A DNA stretch of 64,000 bases from a virus, in the IMG/VR virus record IMGVR_UViG_3300032562_000014, positions 1 to 64,000 of that record, one strand, 5' to 3'. This document shows positions 7,480 to 34,645 of this stretch, piece by piece. Position 1 is the first letter of the stretch. Each line of letters starts with the position of its first letter. The translations under genes were made by a program, and so were the position numbers. Below the pieces are notes generated by a model, which made no database searches, was not told the origin of the DNA, and saw only the letters and a list, made by a program, of their open reading frames with translations.

Positions 7480-8007
7480 ATGGCTATAAAAATGACAAAG
7501 GGCGACACACTATCGCTCACAGTAACAAACATAGAATACAATCACCATTCCTACAACGGGAAGTCCGGTACGAAGTATGTACACCTTATTCACCTGAAAG
7601 ATAAAAACGGTAATGAGGATGCAAAAGAATACATCACAGAAACCCCGGAGATGCCACAGGATGTATTTTATGTCGGTATCCCTCAACTGATCAGGTGCAA
7701 GTACAACAACGCCAAAAGCGATGAAATAATCCCATGGGACGAAGAGGTGCAGAAGATGCAAACAGCGCGCGACATTGCCGCCGGCAAGCCACAAGCGCCG
7801 GGCATTAACCAGGATAGGCCGCACACTTCCGGGGTAAAAATATCGGGAGAGTCTATTACCTTCTGCTTTGCCTATGCAAAGGATCTGAAAGTAGCAGAAA
7901 TATCCCGGCAACCGGAAGGCTATCGCATAACAGATGAAGACATAGAGTGGATCATAAAGACAGCAAATAAGCTGGATGGTGCAATCATCGAAAAAATAAC
8001 CTTCTAA
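7480..8007 (+). CDS. Hypothetical protein (possible OB-fold/SSB-like N-terminus)
   Basis: Beta-rich N-half in a recombination/replication neighbourhood; the function is a guess. Confidence 0.55.
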   Translation: MAIKMTKGDTLSLTVTNIEYNHHSYNGKSGTKYVHLIHLKDKNGNEDAKEYITETPEMPQDVFYVGIPQLIRCKYNNAKSDEIIPWDEEVQKMQTARDIAAGKPQAPGINQDRPHTSGVKISGESITFCFAYAKDLKVAEISRQPEGYRITDEDIEWIIKTANKLDGAIIEKITF

Positions 8008-8017
8008 AAATATATAA

Positions 8018-8347
8018 ATGATTGGTGGAATTTTATTATTACTAACGCTTTTTGGAATTTTATTGTTAATAATATGGTTTCCGGATTCTGGTATAGCCAG
8101 AACAGGGTATAATCTATTTAAAGAAAAAGAAATTCCCGACATCGTCTACGATATAGACAATGAGAGTAAGGTAGTTAGAACGCAGGAAGGGTTTAGTGAT
8201 TTATTTCCGAAATGTACATTGTATAGAAAGATAAATGGCAAATGGTACAAACGCGCATGGACTTACGATTATTTACACCACAGCAAGGAATCTATTATTT
8301 TATATCTCCTATGGGATGAAAAAAATATATTCATTCCGAAAACATAA
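8018..8347 (+). CDS. Hypothetical protein with N-terminal membrane anchor
   Basis: Hydrophobic first 20 aa; AT-rich ORF. Confidence 0.55.
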   Translation: MIGGILLLLTLFGILLLIIWFPDSGIARTGYNLFKEKEIPDIVYDIDNESKVVRTQEGFSDLFPKCTLYRKINGKWYKRAWTYDYLHHSKESIILYLLWDEKNIFIPKT

Positions 8348-8349
8348 GC

Positions 8350-8425
8350 AAAGCCCAATAGCAGCAAGCATTTGAACGGTGCCATCGCCACTAAAGTTTA
8401 ATAGCAGCAAAAATTTTGGACAACA
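8350..8425 (+). repeat. Dispersed ~80-bp repeat, copy 1
   Basis: AAAGCCCAAT...TGAACGGTGCCATCG...AATAG.AGCAA...TGGACAACAA, shared with 59745..59822 and 52163..52239. Confidence 0.8.
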
Positions 8426-8435
8426 AAAATAACAC

Positions 8436-9281
8436 ATGGCCGCAAACAGAAAATATTTACTCCACTTTCCTGAACTATCCGAATATCTATACCGGTACTT
8501 CATGGTACTCCCTATGTCTGAAAAGATGGAGCTATCCTACGAAGAGCAAAAGCTGATAAAGGACGATAAGAGCATCCACCACTTCGTACTTAACGAACCG
8601 ATGGAGAAGCTACTATTCCTGTACGCAAAGACCGGTGGAGAGTTTACCCTTAACCTGGGCGCTCCGGCAGCAATAGAAGAGGCGATAGAGTCCACGCGCT
8701 ACCAGTATGACCATGACCAGAAAAGGCTGGACAGCATAGGCGTAATAACCCGCAGCAACGTATGCTCTGTAAGCTCGCGTGATGTGATGGCCACAGCTAT
8801 CATGTGCGCCCAAAACTGCACCACCGATGTGTACAAGATAAGCCTGTACACCGCCAAGATAGTATCAGAAAAGGAACGCCTGTACAAAAAGCCATACGAT
8901 GCAGTGATGGACGAAGCGCACGAAGGAGTAGCCATTGTCAACAAACTACTGCTGGAGCAACTAAACGCGCTGCCATGGGCCCAGGAAGTGCTGGGAATAG
9001 ACGATACTGACATCAGAATACTGGCAGCCCTATACAACAAAAAGAACGGCGCTATGGACCTGACACAACTATCAGAAATGGCCCGGTCGGAAACTAAAAG
9101 GAAGTACGTAGGCCGCTGGGTGGAGCAACTGGAGAAAAAGGGCTACGTGACCACCGACAGGCCCAAAGAGAAAAAAGTATTTGGCCGGAAGATAAGCTAC
9201 ATGATCAGCACAAAAGGCGTAGGTGTGTTGCTTCGGTATTTGTATTACGTATGGGAAGTTGCTTTTCACGAGAAATGCTAA
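8436..9281 (+). CDS. Protein with C-terminal winged-helix (MarR-like) domain
   Basis: DIRILAAL...LTQLSE...VEQLEKKGYV...YMISTKG pattern. Confidence 0.65.
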   Translation: MAANRKYLLHFPELSEYLYRYFMVLPMSEKMELSYEEQKLIKDDKSIHHFVLNEPMEKLLFLYAKTGGEFTLNLGAPAAIEEAIESTRYQYDHDQKRLDSIGVITRSNVCSVSSRDVMATAIMCAQNCTTDVYKISLYTAKIVSEKERLYKKPYDAVMDEAHEGVAIVNKLLLEQLNALPWAQEVLGIDDTDIRILAALYNKKNGAMDLTQLSEMARSETKRKYVGRWVEQLEKKGYVTTDRPKEKKVFGRKISYMISTKGVGVLLRYLYYVWEVAFHEKC

Positions 9282-9436
9282 AAATAGCAATCATGGATTA
9301 CAGAACAGAAGATGGGGAATTATTCCAGCAGATGAAGGAGCGAGGCTTCACAAAAAGGAGCGAGAGGAAGATAATTCTACTACTGATTACACCCTGGTAG
9401 TAAAATATCCGAAATTTCGATACATTTGTCCTTGTT

Positions 9437-10651
9437 ATGCCAACTCCAATACCCGGCGGAGAGATAACCGCCTTTGAGAATGTAGTAAATTCAGCTCCTT
9501 ACCCTGGCGGCCCTTTCGGTGTGTATGTGCTACAATCATACTTTACAAACTTTGAAGACATACCACGAGCAATAGGAGATCAACTGGATCTGTTTGGCCC
9601 TAACAATACCTACTTAGTAGAGGCGATGAACTCTTTTAATCCCAGCTACTCTACATTAGCTTCGGTAGGCATACTGTTTAAAAATCCGGGCACGAATGCC
9701 ACCAACCCGGTATTGATCATCAACTCTAACTATACCGGCACTATAACGATAAACAGCGCTATTGCAGGGCTTACCATACTCGGCAACAGCGCCATTTCAA
9801 AGATAGTAGTGGCTGCAGGTATTTCGTTGCCAAACTTATACATAGGCCCCGGCGCGAGTGTTGATGTGCTTGATAGTAGCGCTACGGGAGCCTTCGTGAA
9901 CAACATATACCTGGCATACGCAAAGAACACCGCATCATCACTTAATTCAGTAATGGTAGGTAGCGGCATAGGTAATGTACGGGTAGATGATGGCAGTTAC
10001 TATGGAGGTGTAAGCCCTAATGATCCTGACCTGACCTGCGCGGCGGCAGTAACAGGACTTGCGGCGGGTGACATCACACATAACTCAGTAGTGCTGGCAT
10101 GGACACCATACGTGAATGGAGGTTACATCTTTACCAATGTTCTGTACAAGAAAAATGAAAGTGCTGTGTGGCTTCCGGTAGATGATACTGTGGGTGACTA
10201 CGTATACACTGCGGGAGTATTTACGGGCTTCGTTTTTCGTAACCTGGATGCAGATACCTACTACAACTTCAAAGTGACCGTAACGTGCAACAACGGGGGC
10301 GTAGCGAACACTTATATCAACGCACAGACCGTGTGCTGTGGTTCAAATAACAACCTTGTGCCGGCAACAAACTGTAAGATCGTAGTGCTGATAAAGACAT
10401 CGCCAAACCCGGCCAACACGATAACGCTGTGCAATGGTGTGGTGATACCGGCAGAATACCCTGTAGGTACTACACTGACCATACCGTACCTGGCGAATAA
10501 AAACATCACGGCTGACCTGGTAATTGACAATGCCATCTATCAGCTATTCCCGTATAATTCAGTAACAGGAACATGGGATGCTTCAACAACGCCTGTGCTG
10601 GAATTTATAAATGGTAACGTAGTAACTATTAGAGCACAACTTCCTATATAA
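9437..10651 (+). CDS. Virion-associated protein with fibronectin type III domain
   Basis: ITHNSVVLAW...NLDADTYYNFKV FN3 signature; TACATTTG box at 9421..9428. Confidence 0.7.
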   Translation: MPTPIPGGEITAFENVVNSAPYPGGPFGVYVLQSYFTNFEDIPRAIGDQLDLFGPNNTYLVEAMNSFNPSYSTLASVGILFKNPGTNATNPVLIINSNYTGTITINSAIAGLTILGNSAISKIVVAAGISLPNLYIGPGASVDVLDSSATGAFVNNIYLAYAKNTASSLNSVMVGSGIGNVRVDDGSYYGGVSPNDPDLTCAAAVTGLAAGDITHNSVVLAWTPYVNGGYIFTNVLYKKNESAVWLPVDDTVGDYVYTAGVFTGFVFRNLDADTYYNFKVTVTCNNGGVANTYINAQTVCCGSNNNLVPATNCKIVVLIKTSPNPANTITLCNGVVIPAEYPVGTTLTIPYLANKNITADLVIDNAIYQLFPYNSVTGTWDASTTPVLEFINGNVVTIRAQLPI

Positions 10652-12398: not shown

Positions 12399-15300
12399 AT
12401 GGCGGCGTTTAAATTCCGTAATGACCTTAGTAAAGGAATAAACTTAGACCTTGACGAAAGCAGGCTTCCGCCGGATACTGCTGTGTTCCTGAAAAACATC
12501 ACGCGGAATGTAAACACCAATGCTGCGGCAGCGGCGCTTGCTGGCTCTAACCAGGACGTATCCACACCAGTAGAAGGTTGCCAGGCGCTAACCATTAGCG
12601 GGATGCCCAGCGGGACCAATTACTGCATAGGGTACTATTCTTCGGAAAGCACTAATGAACTTTACTTCTTCGTCTACAACAGCGCTACCAACCACACTAT
12701 ATGGGTTATTAGCGGCGACACAGGCGTTATCCAAAAGGTATATCAGGGTGCGCTCCTTCAATTTCAGCTTAACCCAAAATATTTCATAGCACAGGGCCGC
12801 AGCACACTAGAGCTTCGCAGCCGGGTAGACCCTACAACAGGACTGCAAAGCAATTTCAAGTTTCTTATATTCACATTCAACTATACAAACCAGTTTTTAA
12901 TTGAAGTCAATTCATCAATCGCGACCAGTTCTTACTCTACATCGTTCTTTACTTCGAGTGCAGCATTTTATAACCCCCTGGAGCTTGTGCATCTTGGAGT
13001 GCCTACTCCGTTAGTAGCAATGGGTATAGACACACCCAACGCTTATACACCAACAACAGCAGATGCCCAGTTGCAGAACATGATCTCGCGCAATGGCTGG
13101 CAGTTCCGTATAAAGACAGTGGACTTCTATGGCCGCGAGTCGGAGCATGGCATTATCAGCGACACAGCAATAGTACTGATCGGTGGTGGCTGCATATCCC
13201 TGAGCAATGGACTTCCCCGGTGTTTCAACCTCAACTTTGATGCCGGTAACCCAATGGTGGACGTTATCCAGATAGAGTACAGGAAGTGGACCGGTGATGG
13301 CAGCGAGTCGGCGATACAAACAGACTGGCTTCTCTATGAGGCTATAAACAAATACGATAACAGCACAGGAGAGTGGTACACAAGGTCTATCAACCCATTG
13401 TTTACCACAGCAGGTAGCGGTATGACCTTCAATGCCGGTACCAACATGATCACCTATGCCTTCTGTGCGGATAAGAACAGCATACCGATAGATAGCGCTG
13501 AAACAAGCCGTACAGAGCCTGAATTGCCCCGTATATCCTCCAGTGTATTCTCCATTCAGGAAAGGATTGGCCTGGCTAATAACATACGGGACTTTGAGCC
13601 TATAGCACAGAGTACGATAGATAAAGTAACATTTGGAGTACAGCCCCCGGCAACAAGCACATGCGCTTCTCCTCCCACAAGGACTATTACTTTCTATGCG
13701 AATATTTATTCCCCGTACAACGACCAATCGCAAATGATAAGAACATCATTTGGGCAGGTTGTGTTTGGTGGTTCTGATAATGGCGGTGGATGTCCGGGCG
13801 GATCATCTAAAACAAGTAGTTTTAATGTAGGACAAGTATTTGGAGATCAAACCGCAGGGAATAGTGGGTTTATTGGCTATCTTGCTGGTACACCATACAA
13901 GTGCATATCTCAGCAGGGTAATTTTGATCTCGGTACCAATACATGGACCTATCAAGGATATGGAAGTGGAATTGCTTTCCCTGGGCAGATCATGCAAAGA
14001 TTTGTAATTACCGATGTACCAGCTGGGAAGTATGTAATAAGAATAGCAAGCCATCATGCAACTGTTAACGACGCTGACTATCAAAACACCTCCACGCAGG
14101 TAGCCGGAGTTGTCCCTATATTTGATCTTGCTATTGCAGGGAATAGGCGGATTAACATGGCGCAGTACCCATATAAAGAAATTGAAGTAGACTGCACAAG
14201 CCTTGATGTGAATTTACATAACTCCGGCGACCCAATGTTTCTTATTTTGGATATGGGTGACGGGAATTATAGCGGCGGCGTTGATGGTTATCTCTATGAA
14301 ACTCCCGGAGGTGCTCCAGTTGAAATGAATCCCATAGCATTTCATGGATATGCTTTTGGGAGCTATTTCACAGATCACAATGGGTATTATTTTGTTTCAT
14401 CAGCGAAACAAGGGGGTATGCCGGCAATTTCTATACTTACTGATTTTTGCGATGGCAATGGTGTTGTGTTAACGCAACGCATTATCCCCTCTCAATCAGG
14501 GATAATACACGGAGATGGGAGTAATACCCCTTCCGGTGCATGTGCGAATAACTTTGGCGCTTGGAAAAATCAGCTATATTTAGCGGGGGGAACTACGGGT
14601 CAAATTGGGCCATACACTTCTTATCCTGCTGCGGCTCGGAGAATAATTAAACAATATTTTGGTACATGCGCAAATCATAGCATAGGCGTTCCGGGAATAC
14701 CAACGGTAATGACTAAATCGCCATGCGCAGTAAGCGACAATTCGGGATATTCAACTATAATTGCACACAATAGATATAATTATTCTACGCTTCCTGTGTC
14801 TGGATTATTTCCTCTTAATTACGCACTCGTCCCTGATTTTTCAACATCTCCAAATAATCAGGATAAGCTGGTTTTTTCTCAAAAAGGAGGATGTCAATGG
14901 GTAGTTTGTGGTAGTTGCGTGACCTCAATGGCGGATGTGACAGTGACATATTTGGCTTGCGGAGCATCTTCTTCTGGGTGTACAGGGACTCCTGCGCCGA
15001 GAACTCTTTGCTTGTCGGCAATATACCTTAATGTTGCTGGGATAAATTTATACGGTGTACAGAGCGGTGGTAAATATCCTGTAGCTTTTTGGCTACATGA
15101 TGTGATTGGAAGACATACAGCCCCGCAGGTTCGGCAAGGCGATACGGCATTTGTAAACATACCAAACTTGAATGATGTAGGTCAGCAGATGTTTGGCCTA
15201 TCCAGTATTAATTTCACTATAGATTCATCATTCTCCGTAGATCCGATGTTCACTAAAATGACATTTTTGGTGGGAGGGAATGTATTGTTCACTGATTATT

Positions 15301-17318
15301 TTAGTTGGGCCGCAGATTGGGTACAGCCGGTGGACATTACAGGTAATACGAATAGCGTAAACCCGGTAGCTATCCGCATCTATTATGGCAGTCTGAATGA
15401 ATACAAAAAGGCAAATAATTTCAGCGTAAATTGTGACTGGCAGTTCATATCAGATCAGGGATTAAACACCGAAGGCGCGCCGATAGAGGGTGATGTTGCA
15501 CAATTTATTATGAATGGATTCGGTACAACCACAGTAGGCGGTACTGCATGGCTACCTTCTGTTATTTCAGCGCCGGTGACATATGATAGTAGCGGTGCAT
15601 TTTTTACAATACAATATTTACCGGAATTAGCGAGCCTTACTAATGAATGTTTGTTTCGCATCATACGGCCTTCACAAGATATGAGTGCGGAGTTTGTTTC
15701 TTTATTTGAGCAGTGCCTTACTATTGATCTTGTAGCTGGTGTGCCGCAAGTATTGTCTGGCATATTACCTTACGAGGATAGTTATTTACTTTCCCGACTA
15801 TTGCCGGTGCCAAGGTTAAAAGGGCAGGCGGGGCCAATATCTCCAAGCACCTACTCCGCAACACCTGTTCCAGCGCTTCAATACACCAGTACCAATTTAG
15901 ATACGGCACTTGTGGCGAGTGGTATTGCTACAAACAATGTGGACAACAATAATGGCGTAGTGATATTCGATACAGTAGATGATAGCGTATCGGTAGCCTT
16001 TTACTTTGAAAGCCCATCCCCATCAGACTTTTACGGTAGTCACCTCGCGAGCCGTGGCCGTGTAGGAGTAGCCAATCCTTACGAAAGACAACTACGTATA
16101 GGTACAGAGATAGCGCTATCGGACACATCCGATGACCGCAGCACACTAAACGGGCTCTCTTATTTTGAGAGCCAGAACGCGCAGACCTTCGACAGGAACA
16201 CATGGGGAGATATAACAGTAGTGCTCAATGAAACGAGCATGATCATGGCTATATGCACAGCAGACCATTTCGTGGCCCGGTACAACACCACACAACTTCG
16301 CGTGGATGGCAACGGCAACGTGCTGGCGCAAAACCCCAATGGTATCTTCACTCAGCCTGAAAGAAAGAACGGGCAGAACTTCGGCTGCATACAATCCAAC
16401 ATCAATACTGTAGTAAAATACGGAGGAACGGTAGTATGGCTGGATGCAAAAGGACATCTTGTATTCTCTAACTTTAGCGATACACTTCCCGTGGAACAAC
16501 AGGGCTACATGGGCTACCTGCTGAACAAGATAGCAAAAGTAAACCTGCTGAACATGAATCCCGGTACTAACGGATTATCCTACTTTCACGGCAGCATAGA
16601 TCCTAAGACCTTGGAGTACATGCTTACCATGTTCAACATACCAGCATCAGGTAGTCCTGCGTATCTCAATGCCAATAGCGTACCCACACTTACCAGCAAC
16701 GAAACACTGGTATTTGATGTAAGCACAGGGGGCATACTAAAATGCTTCCCGTCCTTCACGCCGGAGATGTACGCGCCATTCCCTGGCTACTACCTCCAGC
16801 GCAACTTCCTGTCATTCAAAAACGGTGTACCGTATATCCATCATAATACCTTCGCAAACACAGTAGCGCCCCCATCTTATGCTAACTTCTACGGTACACA
16901 GTGCGAATGTAGAATAACAGTTGTAGGTAATCCCGGCCCGGATAAGGTGAAGCGCTACTTCTATATTGAACTATATAGTAGACAGGCATTGTTCACAGGT
17001 ATAGCAGGTACGCCAATACAGCCGGTATTCTACGCAGATGTAATCACCACAGAAAAGAACCAGTTAAGCCGGATAAAACCGCTGCGCTGGGTGCAGAAAG
17101 ATGGTATATGGTGTTCCGAGTTTGTGAATGACCTAAATACGCCTCCCGACATTAACCTTGTTCCGCAGACGGGTGCAAACAAGCTACTGGACGGTAATCC
17201 TTTGCAGGGAAGATGGATAAAATGCTCACTTGTAACGCAAAGTTCATACGCGGGAACATATTTTGAAGTATCTTCGCTTGTAATATATGGCAACGGTGTT
17301 GAAAAAAGCATCGGATAA
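12399..17318 (+). CDS. Tail stabilisation / nozzle protein (crAss-like, P22 gp10-like), with large central insertion
   Basis: N-terminal GINLDLDESRLP and C-terminal NP...KRY...W..K.G.W...G..LQGRW motifs are typical of podoviral stabilisation proteins; 1639 aa. Confidence 0.7.
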   Translation: MAAFKFRNDLSKGINLDLDESRLPPDTAVFLKNITRNVNTNAAAAALAGSNQDVSTPVEGCQALTISGMPSGTNYCIGYYSSESTNELYFFVYNSATNHTIWVISGDTGVIQKVYQGALLQFQLNPKYFIAQGRSTLELRSRVDPTTGLQSNFKFLIFTFNYTNQFLIEVNSSIATSSYSTSFFTSSAAFYNPLELVHLGVPTPLVAMGIDTPNAYTPTTADAQLQNMISRNGWQFRIKTVDFYGRESEHGIISDTAIVLIGGGCISLSNGLPRCFNLNFDAGNPMVDVIQIEYRKWTGDGSESAIQTDWLLYEAINKYDNSTGEWYTRSINPLFTTAGSGMTFNAGTNMITYAFCADKNSIPIDSAETSRTEPELPRISSSVFSIQERIGLANNIRDFEPIAQSTIDKVTFGVQPPATSTCASPPTRTITFYANIYSPYNDQSQMIRTSFGQVVFGGSDNGGGCPGGSSKTSSFNVGQVFGDQTAGNSGFIGYLAGTPYKCISQQGNFDLGTNTWTYQGYGSGIAFPGQIMQRFVITDVPAGKYVIRIASHHATVNDADYQNTSTQVAGVVPIFDLAIAGNRRINMAQYPYKEIEVDCTSLDVNLHNSGDPMFLILDMGDGNYSGGVDGYLYETPGGAPVEMNPIAFHGYAFGSYFTDHNGYYFVSSAKQGGMPAISILTDFCDGNGVVLTQRIIPSQSGIIHGDGSNTPSGACANNFGAWKNQLYLAGGTTGQIGPYTSYPAAARRIIKQYFGTCANHSIGVPGIPTVMTKSPCAVSDNSGYSTIIAHNRYNYSTLPVSGLFPLNYALVPDFSTSPNNQDKLVFSQKGGCQWVVCGSCVTSMADVTVTYLACGASSSGCTGTPAPRTLCLSAIYLNVAGINLYGVQSGGKYPVAFWLHDVIGRHTAPQVRQGDTAFVNIPNLNDVGQQMFGLSSINFTIDSSFSVDPMFTKMTFLVGGNVLFTDYFSWAADWVQPVDITGNTNSVNPVAIRIYYGSLNEYKKANNFSVNCDWQFISDQGLNTEGAPIEGDVAQFIMNGFGTTTVGGTAWLPSVISAPVTYDSSGAFFTIQYLPELASLTNECLFRIIRPSQDMSAEFVSLFEQCLTIDLVAGVPQVLSGILPYEDSYLLSRLLPVPRLKGQAGPISPSTYSATPVPALQYTSTNLDTALVASGIATNNVDNNNGVVIFDTVDDSVSVAFYFESPSPSDFYGSHLASRGRVGVANPYERQLRIGTEIALSDTSDDRSTLNGLSYFESQNAQTFDRNTWGDITVVLNETSMIMAICTADHFVARYNTTQLRVDGNGNVLAQNPNGIFTQPERKNGQNFGCIQSNINTVVKYGGTVVWLDAKGHLVFSNFSDTLPVEQQGYMGYLLNKIAKVNLLNMNPGTNGLSYFHGSIDPKTLEYMLTMFNIPASGSPAYLNANSVPTLTSNETLVFDVSTGGILKCFPSFTPEMYAPFPGYYLQRNFLSFKNGVPYIHHNTFANTVAPPSYANFYGTQCECRITVVGNPGPDKVKRYFYIELYSRQALFTGIAGTPIQPVFYADVITTEKNQLSRIKPLRWVQKDGIWCSEFVNDLNTPPDINLVPQTGANKLLDGNPLQGRWIKCSLVTQSSYAGTYFEVSSLVIYGNGVEKSIG

Positions 17319-18976: not shown

Positions 18977-21900
18977 ATGCGTTTTTTGAGAAGGCTTTTT
19001 CTGTTCATTTTTGCCTTGATTCTGATAGGCATTTGCTCCCGGTCTTTCGGACAGCAGGTATTTCCAATAGGTAATCCAACAGCCATAAACAGGGCACTCG
19101 GAGAGTATGCTGCGGATAGCGCACTGAAAGCGCCAAAGGTAAAAAAAGTGTTTCCTAACTTTGATAGTACGGGGAATATTGCTGTAGTAGGAGGTATTTT
19201 GTATTACCATGACGGCAACCACTGGGCGGCAGTAGATACAGGTGCAGGAACTGGTGTAACTTTAGTGCAACTTAATGACAGCCTCGCGAACTACCTGAAA
19301 TTGAAGGATAGCACTACTAAGTGGGTCACGATAACACAACTCAATGACAGTTTTGGCACACACCATAGCGCCGACAGCACGGTGTTCTCCACTATTTACC
19401 GCAACGACACAGGAAACAAGGCAATACGCGCCATTGTCATTGATCTCATTCAAAGCTACGGTATAGCCATTACAGGAGCGGCAGGGCAGACTGTAGGCTC
19501 TTCCCCTGGCTGGGTAATATCAACAGATACTACGAAGATACCTCCCTTTACTGATACGTTGCCCGGCAACAGGAAGCTGGTTACGCCTACTTATCTTGCG
19601 GCACAGGGATATGGCACCGGTACGGTAACATCAGTAACAGCCAACCCATTATCTCCTCTGTTTACGACATCAGTAGCTACGGCAACAACTACTCCGGCAA
19701 TATCCTTCACGCTTAATACTCAATCTGCAAACCTTGTATTTGCTGGGCCATCTTCCGGTGGTGCTGCGGCCCCGACATTTCGATCATTGGTGTCACCTGA
19801 TATTCCTTCACTCACTGGTGGGCAAGTAGGCATATCGGGTTTATCTGCGACAGGCACTCCTTCGTCTACTACATTTCTTCGTGGGGATAATACATGGTCT
19901 GCTGCCGGTACAGGCACGGTGACCTCTGTGGGCTTATCCACGCCATCCATATTTTCAGTTACGCCCACTCCGATAACTACGGCTGGTACATTTTCTGTTA
20001 CGGCGGTACCTGAAACGGCTAATACCTTTTGGGGTGCGCCAAATGGCAGTACTGGTCAGCCAACATTTCGCACATTGGTATCTGCCGATCTTCCCGGAGG
20101 TACGGGTACGGTAACATCAATAGCCACAACAAGCCCTTTGACCGGCGGGACAATTACTACTACAGGAACTTTGGGAATCACCCAGGCCAGCACAATAAAC
20201 AGTGGGTATCTTTCTTCTGTAGACTGGAATACTTTCAATGGGAAACTTTCATCGGCAGTTACCAGCGTGGGGTTGTCTACTCCTTCTATATTCTCTGTTT
20301 CGCCAACATCTATTACTTCAACTGGTGTGTTTACGGTTACTGCTGTGTCGGAAACGGCGAACACCGTATGGGCGGCTCCTAATGGTAGTTCAGGCCAGCC
20401 AACATTCAGGGCATTAGTTGCGGCGGATCTTCCGGCAGGAACCGGTACTGTTACATCAGTATCAAATAGTGATGGAACCTTAACCGTTACCCCTACAACA
20501 GGTGCTGTAGTTGCTTCAATAAACCTTACCAATGCTAATACATGGGGAGGTTTACAAACATTTCATGGTATAAAGTTAACTGACGGAAGTAATATAGATT
20601 GTGGCTCTACAACAGGCACTATTATAGCTACCGACCCTACACATAAACTTGGGTTTTATAACACCACTCCGGTGGTGCAGCAAACGGGGGATATTAGAAC
20701 GGGATTAAGTAATCTTGGTTTAATAACATTGGGTACTTTGAGTGCATCCAGCATTACAGGCACGTTAGGCACAGGTAACGGCGGTACAGGAGCGACTACG
20801 CAAACGAGTGTAAATACTATTTCTATAACTTACGGGGCAAATAATACAATTACAGCAGCCCCATCAGGCTCCGCAGGTGGCGACCTCACAGGAACATACC
20901 CAAATCCTACACTTGCAGCGGCGGGAACGGCGGGAACTTACGGGAGTGCCACACAAACACCTGTTTTTACTACAGATAGTAAAGGAAGGGTAACAGCGGT
21001 AACTAATACGACCATTACGCCTGCTTATGCGAATGTGACGGGAACGCCTGTTATTTCACTTACGGTAAATGGCGTTACGGGCAATAACAATACAGCAATA
21101 ACGGTGAACCCTATACCTACAGGAGTATCAGCGGGGACTTGTACTTATTGCACTATTACACACAATATATATGGCGAGGCTACGGCTTATAGTAACGGCA
21201 CAAACCCTGTTACCTCCATAGTGGCAGGCACGAATGTAACCACATCAGGCACTACGGTAGTAACCGTAAATGTACCATCTATACCTTATTCAAGTGTAAC
21301 AGGTACTCCTGTAATAAGTGCAACTGTTAATGGTGTGACTGTGAATAACAATACAGCAGTAACAGTAAATGCTACACCGTCTGGCAATGCAGGCGGCAGC
21401 TTAACTGGAACGTACCCTAATCCAACTATTGCGGCAAGCGGGGTGACAGCTGCGGCTTATGGAGGAGCAAATTCAATACCAATAGTTACAGTAGGAACAG
21501 ACGGAAGAGTAACTTCAGTAACTACTGTAAACCCATATTCTACAGGAGGAACTGTAACAAGTGTAGGTTTGACAACTCCTTCTATATTTTCTGTGACGCC
21601 TACTCCTATAACCACTTCTGGGACGTTTAGTGTAACCGCTGTGCCTGAATCAGCAAACACTTTTTGGGCTGCGCCAAACGGCAGCAGTGGTCAGCCAACA
21701 TTTAGAACAATAGGAACAGCAGATGTACCAACGCTGAATCAGTCAACAACTGGATCAGCTGGAAGTCTTTCTCCTGGTGCAAATATAAATGGGGTGTCTT
21801 TTACAGGCTCATCAAATATAACAGTTACAGCCGCAGCAAATACGCTAACAACAGCAACATTAAACCCTACAGTTGTTACATCTTCGTTAACTTCAGTAGG

Positions 21901-24900
21901 AACAATAACAAGCGGTATTTGGAATGGTACAACAATTGCTCAATCAAGCGGAGGAACAGGGGCGACAACTCAAACTTCTGTTAATACAACTCCAATAACA
22001 TATGGGGCGAATAATACAATAACAGCTGTGCCTTCTGGTAATGCTGGTGGAGACTTGACTGGGACATACCCTAATCCCACATTAGCAGCAACAGGAACAT
22101 CTGGAACATATGGAGGGAGCAACGCTATACCAATCGTTACGACGGATTCAAAGGGAAGAATAACTTCAATCACAACAGTCAACCCAGTTTCTGCGCCAGT
22201 TTCTTCAGTTTCAAATTCAGATGGAACATTGACTATATCACCCACAACAGGATCAGTAGTTGGATCGTTGAATTTAGCTAACGCAGACACATGGACAGCA
22301 TTACAGACTTTCAACAAAGGCATTGTTTTTCCTTCTTTAAATGTAACACCAGCAACTCCAACAACAGGAAATACCGTATTTACAAATAGTGTAAATGTTT
22401 TGACCTCGTTAAACAACAACGGCTTTCAAACAGGATTAGACTTTACGGGCAATACAGCCAATAGAATATATACAGGAGCAAATCATAATTTCACATTTGA
22501 TAATTTAAGCACAAGCACAACTACAACAAATGGCTATTTTAAAGGTTCTGGCGGTTTAGGAACATTTGTAACTTCAATACCAAATGGCGATTTAGCAAAC
22601 AGTTCAATAACAATAAACGGAACATCAACTTCTTTGGGCGGAAGCGTTTTGACAGGAACGGTCAATGCGGTTTCAATCGCATCAGCAAACGGCTTTGGAG
22701 GCACTTCTTCAGGTGGTGCAACACCTGCTTTAACGATAACAACTTCTATTAATGGATTGATGGAAGGAAATGGAACAGCAGCAGTCATAGCAACAAGCAC
22801 AAACGTTTTGTCTGCTTTAGGAACACAACCGAATCATACATTCTTAGGCAACAATACAGGTTCAGCAGCTTCAGTGGGATTTTACCAGCCAGCTTATACA
22901 GACATATCTGGAACACCAACAATTCAAACAACAATAAATGGGACAATTGTAGCAAATGCAACACCCGTTACAGTTAACCCAATACCAGCAGGAACAGCAG
23001 GAACGTATGGCTCTGCCACACAAACCCCTGTATTCACCACTAATAGTTACGGGGAAGTTACTGGCGTTACTAATACTACGATCACCCCTGCTTACGCCAA
23101 CGTGACAGGAACGCCGGTTATTCAGACTACCATCAATGGTACCGTAGTCGCTAATGGTGTACCTGTTACGGTGAATCCTGTACCCACTGCTGTTACTCCT
23201 GGAACTTATACGAATACAAACCTTACAGTAAATGCGGCGGGCCAGATCACAGCAGCAAGTAACGGAGCCGCAGGCGGGGTTACATCAGTGATCGCCGGTA
23301 CGAACGTGAGCGTGACCGGAACGAGCACGCCGACCGTAAGTGTTACCAACTATCCTTATAGCGGGTTGTCTGGCGCTCCGGTGATCCAGGTTACTATTAA
23401 TGGCACTACGGTAGCTAATGGCACCGTAGTAACAGTTAACCCCAATCCCACAGCCGTAACTGCAGGCAGTTATACATATTCCAACATAACTGTTGGTGCA
23501 GACGGCAGGCTTACGGCTGCAAGTAATGGTACAGCTCCAACGACTTATACAGCAGGTACAGGATTGAGCGGCACAACATCCTTCAGCATCACGCCTGTGA
23601 CAACTTCTGGTACTTACACAAACGCTACAGTAACAGTAAACGCGCTGGGACAAATTATCGGGGCGGCCAGCGGGTCAGCTCCGATAACTTATACAGGCGG
23701 CCAGAATATCTCTATTACTTCCGGCACCGTAAACCTATCAGGCACAATACCTGTTTCTAACGGTGGGACCGGGGTGACCACCACAACGAGTGTTAACGGT
23801 ACTCCAATATCCTACGGAGTTGGGAATACGCTGCCTATTGGAGTTACTTCTATTGTGGCCGGGACGAATGTAACGACCACAGGTACAACAACTGTAACTG
23901 TAAATGTACCGTCTATACCATATGGCAGCGTAACCGGTACACCTGTAATATCTGCTACCGTGAATGGTGTTACTGTAAATAACAATACGGGTGTAACCAT
24001 TACAGCGGCTCCTACAGGCTCCGCAGGTGGTGATCTTGCAGGCACATATCCTAACCCAACTGTAGCTACTGCCGCTATTACAGGAACTAAGATAGCGAGT
24101 GCGACCGTCACCAATGGTAACCTTGTGAACAATACTGTATCAGTCAACGGAACGCCCGTTGCCTTAGGCGCGGGGATTACTATAACTGCAGCGCCGAGTG
24201 GGAGTGCGGGAGGCGACCTCACAGGAACATATCCTAACCCTACATTAGCAGCAACAGCGGTAACAGCGGCAAGCTACGGCAGCAGTACGGCTATTCCGTC
24301 ATTCACGGTAGATGCTAAGGGTAGATTGACAGCAGCCAGTACTAATGCGGTCATTGCACCTGCGGGTACTTTATCGGGTACTACACTTAACAGCGGCGTG
24401 GTGTCAAGTTCTTTGACAAGTGTAGGAACTATAACAGCGGGTACGTGGAATGGAACGGCTATTGCTAATGCTTATCTCGCCAATAGCACCGTAAGTGTAA
24501 ACGGCACACCTGTAGCACTCGGAGCGGGAATAACAGTTACAGCGGCTCCGAGCGGCGCAGCAGGCGGCGACCTTACCGGTACATACCCTAACCCGACCAT
24601 CGGCGCAGGTAAAGTAACCAATACCGACCTTGCAGGTAGCATAGCTGCCAGCAAATTGATAGGTACAGACATTGCAACTGTAGGTACAATAACCACAGGT
24701 ACATGGAACGGAACGGCTATTGCTAATGCGAACCTTGCTAATAGTAGCTTGACGGTTAACGGCAGCAGCGTTTCTTTGGGTGGGAGCGTAACGGTGAGCG
24801 CAGCCCCGAATGGTAGTGCGGGTGGTAGCCTTACAGGTACTTATCCTAACCCGACCATAGCGAGTAGCGTTTCTTTGCCCGGCAGCCCGACCACTACAAC

Positions 24901-25255
24901 GCAGGCTATAGACGACAACAGCACCAATATTGCCACGACTGCTTATGTGCAACTTTACATACCCGCAGATACAAGCATATCGGCATCCTACACACTTACA
25001 TCAAGGGACAGATACAGGACATTGCACAGCACCGCATCGAGCGGAATTACTTTGACTATACCAACCTCATTAGGTACGAAATTCACATGCACAGTTATTG
25101 AAGAGGCGGCGGGTAATGTAACCTTTTCAGCAAGTTCTACAACACTAACATTTATACCCACATCAACGACTAAGACAAAGCAAAGCGGCTCTATTGCCAC
25201 GGTGCGGAGTTGGGCTACAGCAAACAGTTTCACAGTTCAAGGGGATTTACAATAA
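18977..25255 (+). CDS. Giant Thr/Gly-rich fibre/adhesin-like protein with N-terminal signal peptide
   Basis: Seven (A/T/V)P.G.AGG.L.GTYPNPT repeats, GTVTSV repeats and T.D.KGR.T motifs typical of phage fibres; the N-terminus MRFLRRLFLFIFALILIGICSRSFG-Q looks like a Sec signal. Confidence 0.8.
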   Translation: MRFLRRLFLFIFALILIGICSRSFGQQVFPIGNPTAINRALGEYAADSALKAPKVKKVFPNFDSTGNIAVVGGILYYHDGNHWAAVDTGAGTGVTLVQLNDSLANYLKLKDSTTKWVTITQLNDSFGTHHSADSTVFSTIYRNDTGNKAIRAIVIDLIQSYGIAITGAAGQTVGSSPGWVISTDTTKIPPFTDTLPGNRKLVTPTYLAAQGYGTGTVTSVTANPLSPLFTTSVATATTTPAISFTLNTQSANLVFAGPSSGGAAAPTFRSLVSPDIPSLTGGQVGISGLSATGTPSSTTFLRGDNTWSAAGTGTVTSVGLSTPSIFSVTPTPITTAGTFSVTAVPETANTFWGAPNGSTGQPTFRTLVSADLPGGTGTVTSIATTSPLTGGTITTTGTLGITQASTINSGYLSSVDWNTFNGKLSSAVTSVGLSTPSIFSVSPTSITSTGVFTVTAVSETANTVWAAPNGSSGQPTFRALVAADLPAGTGTVTSVSNSDGTLTVTPTTGAVVASINLTNANTWGGLQTFHGIKLTDGSNIDCGSTTGTIIATDPTHKLGFYNTTPVVQQTGDIRTGLSNLGLITLGTLSASSITGTLGTGNGGTGATTQTSVNTISITYGANNTITAAPSGSAGGDLTGTYPNPTLAAAGTAGTYGSATQTPVFTTDSKGRVTAVTNTTITPAYANVTGTPVISLTVNGVTGNNNTAITVNPIPTGVSAGTCTYCTITHNIYGEATAYSNGTNPVTSIVAGTNVTTSGTTVVTVNVPSIPYSSVTGTPVISATVNGVTVNNNTAVTVNATPSGNAGGSLTGTYPNPTIAASGVTAAAYGGANSIPIVTVGTDGRVTSVTTVNPYSTGGTVTSVGLTTPSIFSVTPTPITTSGTFSVTAVPESANTFWAAPNGSSGQPTFRTIGTADVPTLNQSTTGSAGSLSPGANINGVSFTGSSNITVTAAANTLTTATLNPTVVTSSLTSVGTITSGIWNGTTIAQSSGGTGATTQTSVNTTPITYGANNTITAVPSGNAGGDLTGTYPNPTLAATGTSGTYGGSNAIPIVTTDSKGRITSITTVNPVSAPVSSVSNSDGTLTISPTTGSVVGSLNLANADTWTALQTFNKGIVFPSLNVTPATPTTGNTVFTNSVNVLTSLNNNGFQTGLDFTGNTANRIYTGANHNFTFDNLSTSTTTTNGYFKGSGGLGTFVTSIPNGDLANSSITINGTSTSLGGSVLTGTVNAVSIASANGFGGTSSGGATPALTITTSINGLMEGNGTAAVIATSTNVLSALGTQPNHTFLGNNTGSAASVGFYQPAYTDISGTPTIQTTINGTIVANATPVTVNPIPAGTAGTYGSATQTPVFTTNSYGEVTGVTNTTITPAYANVTGTPVIQTTINGTVVANGVPVTVNPVPTAVTPGTYTNTNLTVNAAGQITAASNGAAGGVTSVIAGTNVSVTGTSTPTVSVTNYPYSGLSGAPVIQVTINGTTVANGTVVTVNPNPTAVTAGSYTYSNITVGADGRLTAASNGTAPTTYTAGTGLSGTTSFSITPVTTSGTYTNATVTVNALGQIIGAASGSAPITYTGGQNISITSGTVNLSGTIPVSNGGTGVTTTTSVNGTPISYGVGNTLPIGVTSIVAGTNVTTTGTTTVTVNVPSIPYGSVTGTPVISATVNGVTVNNNTGVTITAAPTGSAGGDLAGTYPNPTVATAAITGTKIASATVTNGNLVNNTVSVNGTPVALGAGITITAAPSGSAGGDLTGTYPNPTLAATAVTAASYGSSTAIPSFTVDAKGRLTAASTNAVIAPAGTLSGTTLNSGVVSSSLTSVGTITAGTWNGTAIANAYLANSTVSVNGTPVALGAGITVTAAPSGAAGGDLTGTYPNPTIGAGKVTNTDLAGSIAASKLIGTDIATVGTITTGTWNGTAIANANLANSSLTVNGSSVSLGGSVTVSAAPNGSAGGSLTGTYPNPTIASSVSLPGSPTTTTQAIDDNSTNIATTAYVQLYIPADTSISASYTLTSRDRYRTLHSTASSGITLTIPTSLGTKFTCTVIEEAAGNVTFSASSTTLTFIPTSTTKTKQSGSIATVRSWATANSFTVQGDLQ

Positions 25256-26475: not shown

Positions 26476-28065
26476 TTAGCTTTCTGATACCACACATTCT
26501 GTGTTCAATAAAAGCTGCGCTATAGAGGCTGCATTCTCCAGCGCTATCCTGGTTACCTTTACCGGGTCTATAACGCCTGTTTCAAAGAAGTGTTCATACT
26601 CCCTTGTTTTGGAATTGTAGCCATAGTCGCCACCGGTCTTTTTTACTTCATCAATGATAGCGTCTATGTCTTTTACCCCTGCATTTTGTAGTATAAGGCG
26701 AGCCGGTTCGCTTATGGCTTCTTCAACGATAAGTACACCTGTTGCTTCATCTTTATTGGCTACCTCTATCAGTTGGATAGCCTGTATAGCATTCAGGTAA
26801 GCTACACCACCACCGGGCAGCACACCTTCGTCTATGGCCGCGAGTACAGCACACAGGGCATCTTCAATACGATCTCTTTTTTCTTTCACTTCCGGTTCGG
26901 TAACGCCACCTACATAGATAACGCCTATGCCGGATGTGAGTTTTGCAAGCCGGCCAGCCAGTGCCTTCTTTTCGTAGGGTTGCTTGCTTTCGGCCACCAG
27001 TCCTTCGATCATCTTTGCGCGGGCTGCAATGTCAAATTCTTTTCCGCGAGCGCCGGTGATCAGTGTAGATTCCCGGTCAATAACCACCTTATCTGCATAT
27101 CCGAGATAGGATGAAGGTGCATTGACTAAATTGTGGCCCTTGTCGCGGCTGATTAGTGTGCCGTTGGTAATGATGGCAATATCTTCCATGATGTCCTTCG
27201 TGATCAGGCCGTCTTTAGGCATCTTTATCACGCATATAGGGCGCTTCATCTGGGCCACAGTAGCGTTGATGTTTTGCAGGGCTTCTCCGTCCATCTCTTC
27301 GCAGATAATAAGGATAGCCTTTTTGTCATTGAGCGAATACTTGATCAGCGGCTCTACTTCATTCCACTGGCTTATCTTGTTGTCGCACATCAGTATGTTC
27401 ACGTTCTCCAGCACTACTACATCGCTGGTATCGGACTGGCGCATGTACGGGGATATGTAGCCACGATCTATCTTCACGCCTTCTACCTTTTTTACGTAGG
27501 TTTCCCCGGTGAGTGAATCTTCAATGCTCACAAGGCCATGCTCTCCTACCTGGCACACGATGTCGCTCACCAGTTTACCTATTTCGGTATTGTTATTGGC
27601 TGATATGGAAGCGATGTTGATCAACTGCTCCGGGTCGCGGCCTATTATTTTGGCAGCCTTACCCAGTTGTTCTACTACGCATTTAGTGCCCTTTTTTATA
27701 CCTTCTGTGAGATCGGCTGCACTGGCACCTTCATTCAGTTCTTTGATGCCTTTATTGATTAACTGCTGCACAAGGACTATAGACGTTGTGGTGCCATCAC
27801 CTGCGGCCTCTGCGGTATTGGTGGCCACCTCTTTCACAAGCTGTGCGCCCATGTTCTCCAAAGTATCCGGCAACTGGCGTATGCTGCGCGCTACGGTCAC
27901 TCCGTCCTTTGTGAGATACGGCACAGGTCTGTTCGGGTTAAGGCTCTGTATCATCACGGTATTGCCGGATGGCCCCAGTGTGGACTTCACGGCATCTGCC
28001 AGGATGTTGATGCCATTGCTAAGTTTGGTTCTCGCTTCTTTGTCAAAATCTACTCTTGTACTCAT
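26476..28065 (-). CDS. groEL: Phage-encoded chaperonin GroEL (Cpn60)
   Basis: TLGP.G, TKDGVTVA, AGDGTTT, DRIEDAL, GVLPGGG and GVIDP.KVTR.ALENAAS motifs; no GGM tail. Confidence 0.95.
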   Translation of the reverse strand: MSTRVDFDKEARTKLSNGINILADAVKSTLGPSGNTVMIQSLNPNRPVPYLTKDGVTVARSIRQLPDTLENMGAQLVKEVATNTAEAAGDGTTTSIVLVQQLINKGIKELNEGASAADLTEGIKKGTKCVVEQLGKAAKIIGRDPEQLINIASISANNNTEIGKLVSDIVCQVGEHGLVSIEDSLTGETYVKKVEGVKIDRGYISPYMRQSDTSDVVVLENVNILMCDNKISQWNEVEPLIKYSLNDKKAILIICEEMDGEALQNINATVAQMKRPICVIKMPKDGLITKDIMEDIAIITNGTLISRDKGHNLVNAPSSYLGYADKVVIDRESTLITGARGKEFDIAARAKMIEGLVAESKQPYEKKALAGRLAKLTSGIGVIYVGGVTEPEVKEKRDRIEDALCAVLAAIDEGVLPGGGVAYLNAIQAIQLIEVANKDEATGVLIVEEAISEPARLILQNAGVKDIDAIIDEVKKTGGDYGYNSKTREYEHFFETGVIDPVKVTRIALENAASIAQLLLNTECVVSES

Positions 28066-28097
28066 AATTATGTATGGTTGGTTGATGAAAAAATGGG

Positions 28098-29768
28098 TTA
28101 CGCAATAGTGGTTTCTGCGGGTATGGTGGCATACAGGTCGCCCCGGCGCATAAACAGGTATTCTTCACCTTCTATCTTTATAGAGGTGCCGGCCAGTTTC
28201 TTGTACAGTACGGTATCTCCTTCATTGATGTCGGTGACAAGTTCTCCTTTGGAGATAATGGTTCCCTTCTGTGGCTTTTCTTCGCCCTGTATTTTGATGA
28301 ACATATCATCTGCCTGTTCCGGTATTGGTTTTACAAAAACAAGGTTGCCCAGTGGTTTTACTTGGTTCATTTCGTTTATTTTAGCTGTGATAAAATCTGA
28401 GTGAGCGATAAGGTATTTCTTACCGAAAAGGTTGATGGGGTATAGTTCTTTGTAGGACGCGAGGCATATATTCGGTAACTGCTTTGGGAACTCTATCTTG
28501 CAGCGCATCAGGTGGTTGCGGTTTAGCCCGGCACTCTCGGCAATGGCATCTGCTTTCAGGCGCTCCATCTTATTTTCAAAGTCCTGTACTTTGAGTGCAA
28601 ATTCAGGGTCGCTTTTGTCTATGCGCTCCACATCGGCGCGGTAGCCTTCGTACTTAGCCTGAAACTTCTGCACCCGGTCCTTCTTTTTGTGATCAAGTGT
28701 TATGGTGAATGAGCTCAGGTCGCGGCATTTGGATAAGTCGCTGTCAAGGCCGGGAGATAGCAATTCATCATTCTGTCGGTTGCTATGCTCAAAGATGTCA
28801 AATTCAAAATTGAGGAACACGCTTTTATTGAACGGGATTATTTTCATATCCGGTATCTTCCCGTACAATTTACGGTTCTCTATTTTGCCGAATATCTCGC
28901 GGGCATTAGGGTCAAGGCAGTTGATGATGCGGTGTTCTTCTATGTAGTTATCAAAGCTACCCTCAAACCTGCGGAGTATGCGGTATGGCTGTGACTCTAT
29001 GGAGTGGTGAAGGATGGCCATGTCGCCCACATTCAGCAATGGATACATCTTCTGCGCCTCACTACCAATATCCACCACCTCGCCATACTGCAGGTTGCGC
29101 AACATGTGAATATATAAAGGTGACTGCACAAAACCGCTGTCTGTAGTTTCGCGCTTGATCTTCTGTGCGGCCAGGTCTATAGATACAATGATACGATGTG
29201 GTGATACTAAGCCATTGACTGTAAATACGTCCTTCTCGTAGAGTATGTGGTACGTCTTATCTCCTTCGCGAAATGAAGGGTATATGGCCACCTTTACTTC
29301 TTTGCGAAATTCAATGATGGCGCCCGATTTGAAATAAGACCCTGCCGGGGCCTTGTATATGATTGCTTTGCGCGGAGTGCCTTCGGTATCATCAGCGATT
29401 ACCAACCCATCTTTGGTTACATGGCTCTGGGTGACAATTTCTACAAACAGGCGGTTGTATGGTTCTCCATTGACGCGCCATACTTCATCTTCAAACACTA
29501 CCGGATGCTCCACGCCGTATATCTCTATAGACCTGTATGATCCTGTATCTTGCTGGGTGCGCTTGTATAAGATGTTGTCCCCTTTTTTAAAAGAAGACCC
29601 TTCACAAGTGTATAAAACCACACCACGCGCGCATAGGTTGTTGATGTCGTCCGGCGCTATAAGCCCATCACCCAGGTCTTCGGCGGATGTGTTTGGCTCA
29701 ACGATCAGTGTCTTGTAAATAGTCCCTGTGCTATGCACATAGGGGAGTGGCTGGTAGGTGGCGCTCAT
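28098..29768 (-). CDS. Multi-domain GroES-like co-chaperonin (about five tandem Cpn10 repeats)
   Basis: The C-terminal 90 aa is canonical GroES (VKPLGNLVFV...GDTVLYKK.AGT.IKIEGEEYL). Four upstream segments repeat the P..R(I/L).V...G...G.V...GD...Y...(E/D)(V/I) pattern. Confidence 0.75.
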   Translation of the reverse strand: MSATYQPLPYVHSTGTIYKTLIVEPNTSAEDLGDGLIAPDDINNLCARGVVLYTCEGSSFKKGDNILYKRTQQDTGSYRSIEIYGVEHPVVFEDEVWRVNGEPYNRLFVEIVTQSHVTKDGLVIADDTEGTPRKAIIYKAPAGSYFKSGAIIEFRKEVKVAIYPSFREGDKTYHILYEKDVFTVNGLVSPHRIIVSIDLAAQKIKRETTDSGFVQSPLYIHMLRNLQYGEVVDIGSEAQKMYPLLNVGDMAILHHSIESQPYRILRRFEGSFDNYIEEHRIINCLDPNAREIFGKIENRKLYGKIPDMKIIPFNKSVFLNFEFDIFEHSNRQNDELLSPGLDSDLSKCRDLSSFTITLDHKKKDRVQKFQAKYEGYRADVERIDKSDPEFALKVQDFENKMERLKADAIAESAGLNRNHLMRCKIEFPKQLPNICLASYKELYPINLFGKKYLIAHSDFITAKINEMNQVKPLGNLVFVKPIPEQADDMFIKIQGEEKPQKGTIISKGELVTDINEGDTVLYKKLAGTSIKIEGEEYLFMRRGDLYATIPAETTIA

Positions 29769-29786: not shown

Positions 29787-29821
29787 AAAAAGAAAATTAC
29801 CTGTGTACAGGTATAAAAGTA
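29787..29821. promoter_or_regulatory. 35-bp operator-like box, copy 1
   Basis: AAAAAGAAAATTACCTGTGTACAGGTATAAAAGTA, containing the inverted repeat TACCTGT-N2-ACAGGTA; identical to 34611..34645. Confidence 0.75.
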
Positions 29822-29892
29822 CGTCTTCTTATGACATTAGCAAACTTATCAGGTTATTTTTGAACTTGAATAGGAAAAATAATCTACTTTAT

Positions 29893-34610: not shown

Positions 34611-34645
34611 AAAAAGAAAATTACCTGTGTACAGGTATAAAAGTA
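34611..34645. promoter_or_regulatory. 35-bp operator-like box, copy 2
   Basis: Identical to 29787..29821. Confidence 0.75.

Follow-up and report, generated by a model that had tools for sequence, protein, structure and literature searches.

The 64,000-nucleotide stretch analysed here (the window) comprises positions 1 to 64,000 of the IMG/VR virus record IMGVR_UViG_3300032562_000014, which is 72,644 bases long and has a completeness of 64% as estimated by CheckV. Its genes specify a DnaB-like helicase, a replication initiator, and a large terminase, and the structural genes for the most part lack a counterpart among phage families. The subject of this analysis is a chaperonin operon on the minus strand of the window, in which an open reading frame (ORF) of 556 amino acids (aa; positions 28098-29768 including the stop codon) is followed after 32 nucleotides (nt) by an ORF of 529 aa (26476-28065). 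The downstream gene is groEL, and the upstream gene encodes a single chain of five GroES units. An earlier inspection of the letters without database searches (the sequence-only reading) had given the coordinates of both ORFs, an intact groEL downstream, and the boundaries of the units. The coordinates and the intact groEL were confirmed, and the boundaries proved accurate to a few residues.

Searched against 5.8 billion protein clusters, the chain returned 45 matches: the cluster to which it belongs, 37 relatives of full length (541-592 aa), and seven shorter proteins (456-467 aa). The full-length relatives are 31-42% identical to the chain, and their alignment with it (A1, 38 rows, to which all counts out of 38 below refer) is collinear along the entire chain. 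Sources that name members of this family call them “chaperonin GroES” or “co-chaperonin GroES (HSP10)”. As split versions of the locus occur in relatives (discussed below), one could suppose that the long ORF is a mis-assembly or sequencing error that fuses separate genes. However, the full-length frame is kept in the 37 relatives despite their divergence, the identical protein is present on 13 contigs, and the same sequence was recovered in the contigs of four out of four other sequencing runs (two listed for 2016 and two for 2020): single contigs span the whole ORF in runs X12, X13, and X16 and positions 26476-29429 in run X20, and all four cross the junction between units 4 and 5 with 0 differences. 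The full-length relatives, the collinear alignment, and the identical contigs from other runs together rule out an assembly artefact, to which we assign next to no probability, and the chain is a real, conserved gene. A profile search of viral contigs with the family alignment found no relatives, and in a tblastn search against 50,697 phage records unit 5 alone was matched, with none of the 10 records covering at least 80% of the chain. The chain at one related locus (L005, positions 7995-9896) is 633 aa long and carries an additional C-terminal tail of about 75 residues beyond unit 5.

All five units lie head to tail on the minus strand, and the last is the most readily recognized. Unit 5 (28098-28370, aa 467-556) is a canonical GroES: against Pfam Cpn10 (PF00166, gathering cut-off 21.1 bits) the whole protein scores 63.3 bits, with a strong match at aa 470-549 only, and unit 5 alone scores 45.2 bits. 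Unit 2 (29211-29465, aa 102-186) taken alone scores 19.2 bits, slightly below the cut-off, across aa 105-181 and profile positions 7-89 of 93, while units 1 (29466-29729, aa 14-101), 3 (28863-29210, aa 187-302), and 4 (28371-28862, aa 303-466) have no Pfam match on their own sequence. A self-BLAST of the chain detected no internal repeat because the units are too diverged for a pairwise search. Comparison of the corresponding sub-alignments of the family with hhalign joined unit 1 to unit 2 (E = 1.5e-24), unit 1 to unit 5 (E = 1.9e-14), and unit 2 to unit 5 (E = 3e-18). Unit 3 matched unit 5 at just E = 1.3e-6 across 26 columns, and unit 4 had no significant match to the other units within the 38-row family.

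For the two divergent units, more distant relatives were informative. A profile search run exhaustively over 1.84 billion representatives showed that units 3 and 4 also exist as a separate module (more than 30 representatives of 253-288 aa, covering profile positions of about 190-460), alongside proteins made of units 2-4 (367-407 aa), units 3-5 (362-387 aa), and units 1-4; none of the best 150 matches is longer than 595 aa. Further forms of 467-528 aa, among P0062-P0184, carry about 120 additional N-terminal aa of unrelated sequence. The alignment of the standalone two-unit family (A4, 30 rows) to the chain spans aa 187-467, with the helical insert of unit 4 included, and has E = 9.8e-46. Pfam was run on 43 relatives that differ in architecture and include 32 two-unit proteins: the half equivalent to unit 3 passed the Cpn10 cut-off in eight and the part equivalent to unit 4 beyond the coil passed it in three (P0077, P0082, and P0101), where it aligned to Cpn10 positions 27-93. 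A pooled 70-row profile of units 3 and 4 compared with 23 single GroES sequences likewise gave two collinear matches, one for unit 3 (E = 2.2e-5) and one of the post-coil part of unit 4 to GroES positions 33-92 (E = 6.9e-4). As this part of unit 4 aligns to positions 33-92, the insert is placed exactly at the position of the mobile loop. PHROGs contains no family for units 3 and 4, and searching PDB sequences with the profile of the two-unit family produced nothing significant (designed coiled coils at E = 0.03-0.07 and GroES at E = 0.49). In the ESM Atlas the nearest clusters to units 3 and 4 are viral, with Cpn10 on 30-33% of members and scores of 0.90 and 0.85-0.87, respectively, and we treat these as leads only.

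Predicted structures extend the same picture. The AlphaFold2 model of the full-length chain, built on the family alignment, has a predicted local distance difference test (pLDDT) score of 80.4 and a predicted template modelling (pTM) score of 0.74, and in all five units the modelled strands follow one pattern of a single N-terminal strand, a loop or insert, and five strands. Segments of low confidence at aa 28-43, 115-127, and 487-494 are the mobile loops of units 1, 2, and 5, with pLDDT below 50 at the first two, where the disordered loops were assigned to aa 26-45 and 112-132; a further such segment at aa 329-340 is the beginning of the unit 4 insert. Foldseek placed plastid Cpn20 (7ekq_R, E = 1.5e-6) and many GroES chains at the top of its list for the full-length model. 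Units 3 and 4 were also folded separately (33 rows; pLDDT 88.0, pTM 0.80). Cpn20 chains align across two consecutive units, at 222-550 of the full-chain model and 1-279 of the model of units 3 and 4, and since the 162-residue Cpn20 alignment exceeds one 95-residue unit, both unit 3 and unit 4 have the GroES fold. Within the models, it is well supported that units 3 and 4 are packed against each other as are the two halves of a single plastid Cpn20 chain in the structure of an assembled lid, and unit 4 matches the second Cpn20 unit in fold. Two results weigh against this assignment: Foldseek of the separate model of units 3 and 4 had no match at E of 0.001 or less, the best being Cpn20 at E = 2.4e-3, and the sequence evidence for unit 4 is weak by itself, as its hhalign match carries a probability of 27%. 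We nevertheless regard the GroES fold as well supported for all five units, as the sequence-only reading had proposed, since the family profile comparison, Pfam on relatives, and the predicted structure agree. The fold is thus not confined to the C-terminal domain, and the long ORF is not an artefactual fusion, contrary to both outcomes named in advance as counting against that reading.

The units differ in the loop by which GroES docks to GroEL. Following a passage of PMC5649160, we took the docking motif to be a mobile-loop Gly followed by three hydrophobic residues. In the family alignment the Gly is present in unit 1 in 35/38 rows, in unit 2 in 27/38, in unit 3 in 37/38, and in unit 5 in 12/38, and the three hydrophobic residues in 31/38, 33/38, 22/38, and 32/38, respectively. 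It is well supported that units 1, 2, 3, and 5 retain this loop, giving four loops in total. In the window chain itself, the unit 3 triplet reads F-V-Q and the Gly of the unit 5 loop is replaced by Asp, and the model places two short helices in the loop region of unit 3 (aa 199-227). Unit 4 has no docking motif, and a helical insert (28512-28793, aa 326-419) stands in the place of the loop. The insert holds an antiparallel helical hairpin of about 65 residues (helices at aa 351-382 and 388-415), whose location at the docking-loop position is well supported, so the description of the fourth unit as degenerate with a helical insert where the mobile loop would be, and of the fifth as canonical, was borne out.

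Conservation is also uneven along the chain. Mean pairwise identity is highest in unit 3, at 53% versus 34% in the canonical unit 5, and it is lowest, at 27%, in the hairpin. In unit 3, 26/114 columns are conserved at 90% or more, and M222, Q227, G235, H255, and E258 are invariant, with equivalents that are likewise invariant in the standalone two-unit family. This pattern in the alignments suggests a specific function of unit 3 beyond that of a lid subunit. It would also fit a chain in which units 1-4 serve mainly as an adaptor, for instance with the hairpin holding a head protein, or as a binder of another host ring such as ClpP, as the conservation of unit 3, including the polar residues H255 and E258 that it has in common with the standalone family, is more than a plain lid seems to need. 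The plastid co-chaperonin complex binds and inhibits ClpP according to a portion of a preprint on it (bioRxiv 10.1101/2021.07.26.453741). However, docking-loop motifs are retained in four units, linkage to groEL is strict, adjacent units are predicted to pack as in a lid, and the analyses run gave no pointer to a partner other than GroEL, and we therefore hold an adaptor role to be highly unlikely.

In the textbook view GroES is a symmetric seven-subunit lid, of which a five-unit chain would occupy five adjacent places. The GroEL to be capped is most plausibly the one encoded next to it. The 529-aa ORF is a complete GroEL (Pfam Cpn60_TCP1, 193 bits, profile positions 1-488 of 490; phrog_5725, 1.6e-135), and its best solved relative is the reconstructed ancestral chaperonin of Fibrobacteres-Chlorobi-Bacteroidetes (4.6e-133). 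In 7/7 related loci, too, groEL lies immediately downstream of the chain gene. The nucleotide-binding motif GDGTTT is present in the window GroEL and in those of six relatives (L004-L009). None of these linked GroELs has a Gly-Gly-Met C-terminal tail, which we take to be a feature of E. coli GroEL. In all seven, the apical stretch after GEAL deviates from the usual GroEL sequence; this stretch presumably corresponds to helix I, which binds GroES and substrate. An alternative is that host GroES fills the two remaining places of the lid, or that the chain serves the host GroEL, producing in either case a mixed phage-host chaperonin. Support for this comes from T4 gp31, which operates with the host GroEL according to a passage of PMC5780408, and from the distant two-unit relatives: the standalone-family profile led to 14 distant viral loci (25-40% identical to a portion of the query), and neither GroEL nor GroES occurs within the fetched flanks of any of the 14 viral contigs. 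In the family studied here, by contrast, the chain is paired with its own groEL in 7/7 loci, the lineage retains a GroES unit of its own, whether within the chain or encoded separately, and all seven phage GroELs deviate in the presumed GroES-binding helix. Given these points, we consider a mixed phage-host chaperonin distinctly unlikely.

A source for the two remaining places may lie within the chain gene. Unit 5 begins at an in-frame ATG (28368-28370, minus strand) encoding Met467, and initiation at this codon would release a free unit 5 of 90 aa. The sequence-only reading had noted this ATG and the A-rich stretch ahead of it, both of which are present. In 38/38 rows the 12 aa that precede the first strand of unit 5 include a Met, at eight different distances, compared with 1-9/38 at the other junctions and a composition-based expectation of about 24%. 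Asn, Lys, and Thr, which have A-rich codons, are frequent among the six residues before the junction Met (0.434 versus 0.316 before other Mets; Mann-Whitney p = 3e-11, an inexact value as the rows are related). At five loci the A content upstream of the internal ATG is only mildly raised (0.38-0.54 versus 0.29-0.38). Scored with a start-context weight matrix built from the gene starts of this phage (n = 31), the ATG at 28370 ranks 12th among the 341 in-frame internal ATGs in the window and best of the nine within the chain gene, and it exceeds 8 of the 31 true starts.

Relatives in which unit 5 is detached point in the same direction. The DNA of locus L006 has a 473-aa gene for units 1-4 that ends in a stop codon, followed after 41 nt by a separate 93-aa GroES gene and then by groEL, and the seven short database relatives (456-467 aa) terminate directly after unit 4. 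In a quick maximum-likelihood tree of the region of units 1-4 (57 rows), the ten split rows require five state changes, four of which are forced by well-supported branches. Among 13 distant fused proteins of units 3-5, a Met near the junction was found in 9 of the 11 readable cases (one of them ambiguous), and the other 2 of the 13 had no usable match. Several observations count against an internal start. The score of 1.77 at ATG 28370 is low beside the true-start median of 5.46, and 11 other internal ATGs score higher; the junction Met is missing in 2 of the 11 readable distant proteins; the 38 rows are kin, so their 38 Mets are not 38 independent events; two of the split rows in the quick tree sit on long branches; and the split forms other than L006, which is confirmed on DNA, are known from protein lengths alone. 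Taking the conserved Met, the A-rich context, the start score, and the split relatives together, we believe that an internal start at Met467 releasing a free 90-aa unit 5 is the best reading and a likely one. The strong support for it, which includes the Met in 38/38 rows, the split genes of L006, and a start context ranked 12th of 341, is indirect and drawn from comparison of sequences, and unit 5 is thus probably produced alone in addition to being part of the chain.

Without a free unit 5, the chain alone would have to cap GroEL as an incomplete lid that covers five places out of seven, so that two GroEL subunits stay uncovered or the side remains open, and the junction Met would be a relic of an ancestral start codon or have another role. 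The moderate start context of ATG 28370 is compatible with this, and the chain alone has four motif-bearing loops, which equals the minimum quoted in a passage of PMC4242682. Engineered GroES chains of six or eight units also function with GroEL despite the mismatch in number, as described in a section of PMC5780408. Yet without selection a relic Met should have disappeared from many of these lineages, whose identity is only 31-42%, and all 38 rows keep it amid a variable linker, while the split relatives show that the lineage uses a free GroES of the unit 5 type. We therefore regard an incomplete five-place lid as unlikely, albeit consistent with part of the data.

The reading that we prefer, with somewhat better than even confidence, is that five GroES domains joined head to tail form a single-chain co-chaperonin, which acts as a lid for the phage's own GroEL and is completed by free unit 5 made from Met467. 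The five-unit chain would take up five adjacent places of the seven-fold lid, and the 90-aa product of the conserved ATG would fill the remaining two, so that the resulting lid would be lopsided, with six docking loops and one hairpin. A mixed lid of multi-unit and single-unit pieces has a precedent, as the lid in PDB entry 7ekq is composed of two chains of Cpn20 and one each of Cpn23 and Cpn11, seven units in all. When the complex of the chain and two free units 5 was predicted, without controls, the interface score ipSAE came out at 0.22 and 0.23 against a mark of 0.32, values that count neither for nor against such a lid. More speculatively, it is possible, though we think it doubtful, that one gene with two products yields a lopsided seven-place lid whose rigid hairpin extends for about 45-50 Å along or into the GroEL ring, where it could hold a head protein or fix the rotational register. 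If true, such a lid would break the seven-fold symmetry that is thought to be basic to the action of GroES.

As to what such a chaperonin might fold, the gene neighbourhood offers the available hints. In relatives the operon is flanked by homologues of proteins of 879, 370, and 523 aa on one side and of a 1639-aa protein on the other, and Pfam and PHROG scans of these neighbouring structural ORFs found no family match. Judged by gene order, the operon is probably transcribed divergently from the head-gene block and may help to fold phage structural proteins in the way that T4 gp31, a phage co-chaperonin, serves the capsid protein gp23; a role in head assembly is therefore a reasonable guess. 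The sequence-only reading had gone further and tied the lid to a 57-kDa capsid protein, for which the scans gave no support: the 523-aa ORF has no Pfam or PHROG family match, and what it has is a conserved neighbourhood with the operon. Of that interpretation as a whole, the five-unit chain, the insert in unit 4, and the conserved gene were upheld and the internal start gained indirect support, while the lid of one chain plus two single units, the use of host GroES, and the tie to the capsid stay proposals.

The region also contains a repeated element of 35 nt, made up of the palindrome TACCTGTACACAGGTA and a T-run. One copy, a terminator-like match on the minus strand, lies at 29787-29821, 19 nt upstream of the start codon of the chain, and a second, identical copy of the element in the same orientation lies at 34611-34645 between the genes for the 879-aa and 370-aa proteins; two copies in the window compare with 0.03 expected. 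The contig graphs of four runs branch at the copy at 29787-29821. It may serve as a terminator-like hairpin or as the binding site of a regulator. Four ORFs of the window are very large and have next to no family matches, at 12399-17318, 18977-25255, 49032-55982, and 55976-59737 (1639, 2092, 2316, and 1253 aa, respectively). The 1639-aa protein is 48-56% identical in relatives, the 2092-aa ORF is rich in Thr, Gly, and Ser, repetitive, and fibre-like, and an ORF at 11400-12395 matches a phosphoadenosine phosphosulfate reductase-like family (phrog_424, 1.8e-45).

The host of this uncultured phage is probably a Bacteroidota bacterium of fresh water, judging from the signals in its DNA. A Shine-Dalgarno-like 4-mer precedes only 2 of the 31 gene starts in the window, which instead show a peak of A at positions -14 to -10, and we base the assignment on these starts together with the relationship of the linked GroEL to the Fibrobacteres-Chlorobi-Bacteroidetes ancestor. 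The motif TAAGTTTG occurs at 29841-29848, 73 nt upstream of the chaperonin operon. The translation and promoter signals that we take to be typical of Bacteroidota fit both the starts and this motif. The 24 metagenome DNA runs that contain 77-99% of the sampled words of this stretch are labelled as freshwater or lake water. Relatives of the chain family were absent from cellular-genome contigs searched with the A2 profile and protein P0039, which therefore provided no host link.

Compared with bacterial GroES (Cpn10, PF00166; 3nx6, 1wnr, 1aon), with which it shares a position directly upstream of groEL, here across a 32-nt spacer, the phage chain has four extra units fused ahead of the canonical one, three of them too diverged for the Pfam model alone. 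T4 gp31 (1g31, 2cgt) is only 12-13% identical to the chain and differs in being a single unit that forms a homo-heptamer on the host GroEL, whereas here the phage supplies its own GroEL. A fused GroES heptamer was reportedly engineered by Nojima in 2008, and chains of 6-8 GroES units by Guo in 2015. Such engineered concatamers are laboratory constructs of identical units, while the phage chain is natural and its five units are diverged. That several GroES units in one polypeptide can act as a lid is stated in parts of PMC5780408 and PMC4242682.

Databases already contain phage GroES proteins of two units. The profile phrog_13932 (200 positions) matches aa 454-547 of the chain at E = 4e-4, and the 200-aa “Chaperonin cpn10” of Cellulophaga phage phi18:3 matches the chain structurally (E = 1.2e-5, 157 columns); like the standalone family, both have two units as against five here. 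The best viral structural match of the chain is BFVD A0A516L046, a 304-aa viral protein (E = 1.1e-10, 402 alignment columns), which may be a three-unit GroES. Annotations such as “chaperonin GroES” thus conceal multi-unit architectures, as two-, three-, four-, and five-unit forms came from one search. Pseudomonas phage EL (gp146), OBP, and AR9 have their own GroEL-type chaperonins according to excerpts of PMC7185714 and PMC9598537, and these are reported in a passage of PMC5649160 to be independent of a co-chaperonin; in the family described here, by contrast, GroEL is strictly linked to an elaborate lid gene. The EL chaperonin (6tmt) matches the window GroEL at 4.6e-32, versus 1e-110 to 1e-133 for bacterial GroELs.

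In the full-text literature that we searched (outside subscription journals and supplements), we found no report of a natural chain that joins more than two GroES units, and in the viral chaperonin survey PMC5649160 the words “tandem” and “fused” are both absent. The two-unit plastid Cpn20 is the only natural exception described in passages of PMC5780408, where its fit to the seven-fold ring is presented as still debated. Like Cpn20, Cpn21, and Cpn23 of plastids, the phage chain has GroES units head to tail in one polypeptide, packed, in our models, as neighbours in a lid, and the plastid lid (7ekq) reaches seven by combining multi-unit and single-unit pieces, as proposed here. The two differ in that the phage chain has five units rather than two, belongs to a phage rather than a plastid, and has one mobile loop replaced by a helical hairpin; its single unit would be produced by an internal start within the chain gene, unlike Cpn10 and Cpn11 of the plastid lid, which have separate genes. 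Sequence identity to Cpn20 is only 12-19%. Having five units and being encoded in a virus record that also has DnaB-like helicase and large-terminase genes, the chain is a working analogue of Cpn20 and not a member of its family. What this phage family adds is a natural five-unit chain in a compact two-gene operon, with fused and split versions and a built-in candidate source of a “filler” unit, as well as likely internal translation initiation in a phage whose host, by its sequence signals, does without Shine-Dalgarno motifs. It thereby opens to test how many docking loops a lid needs, whether symmetry is needed, and what role can be taken on by a unit freed from docking, such as the hairpin of unit 4 or the conserved unit 3.

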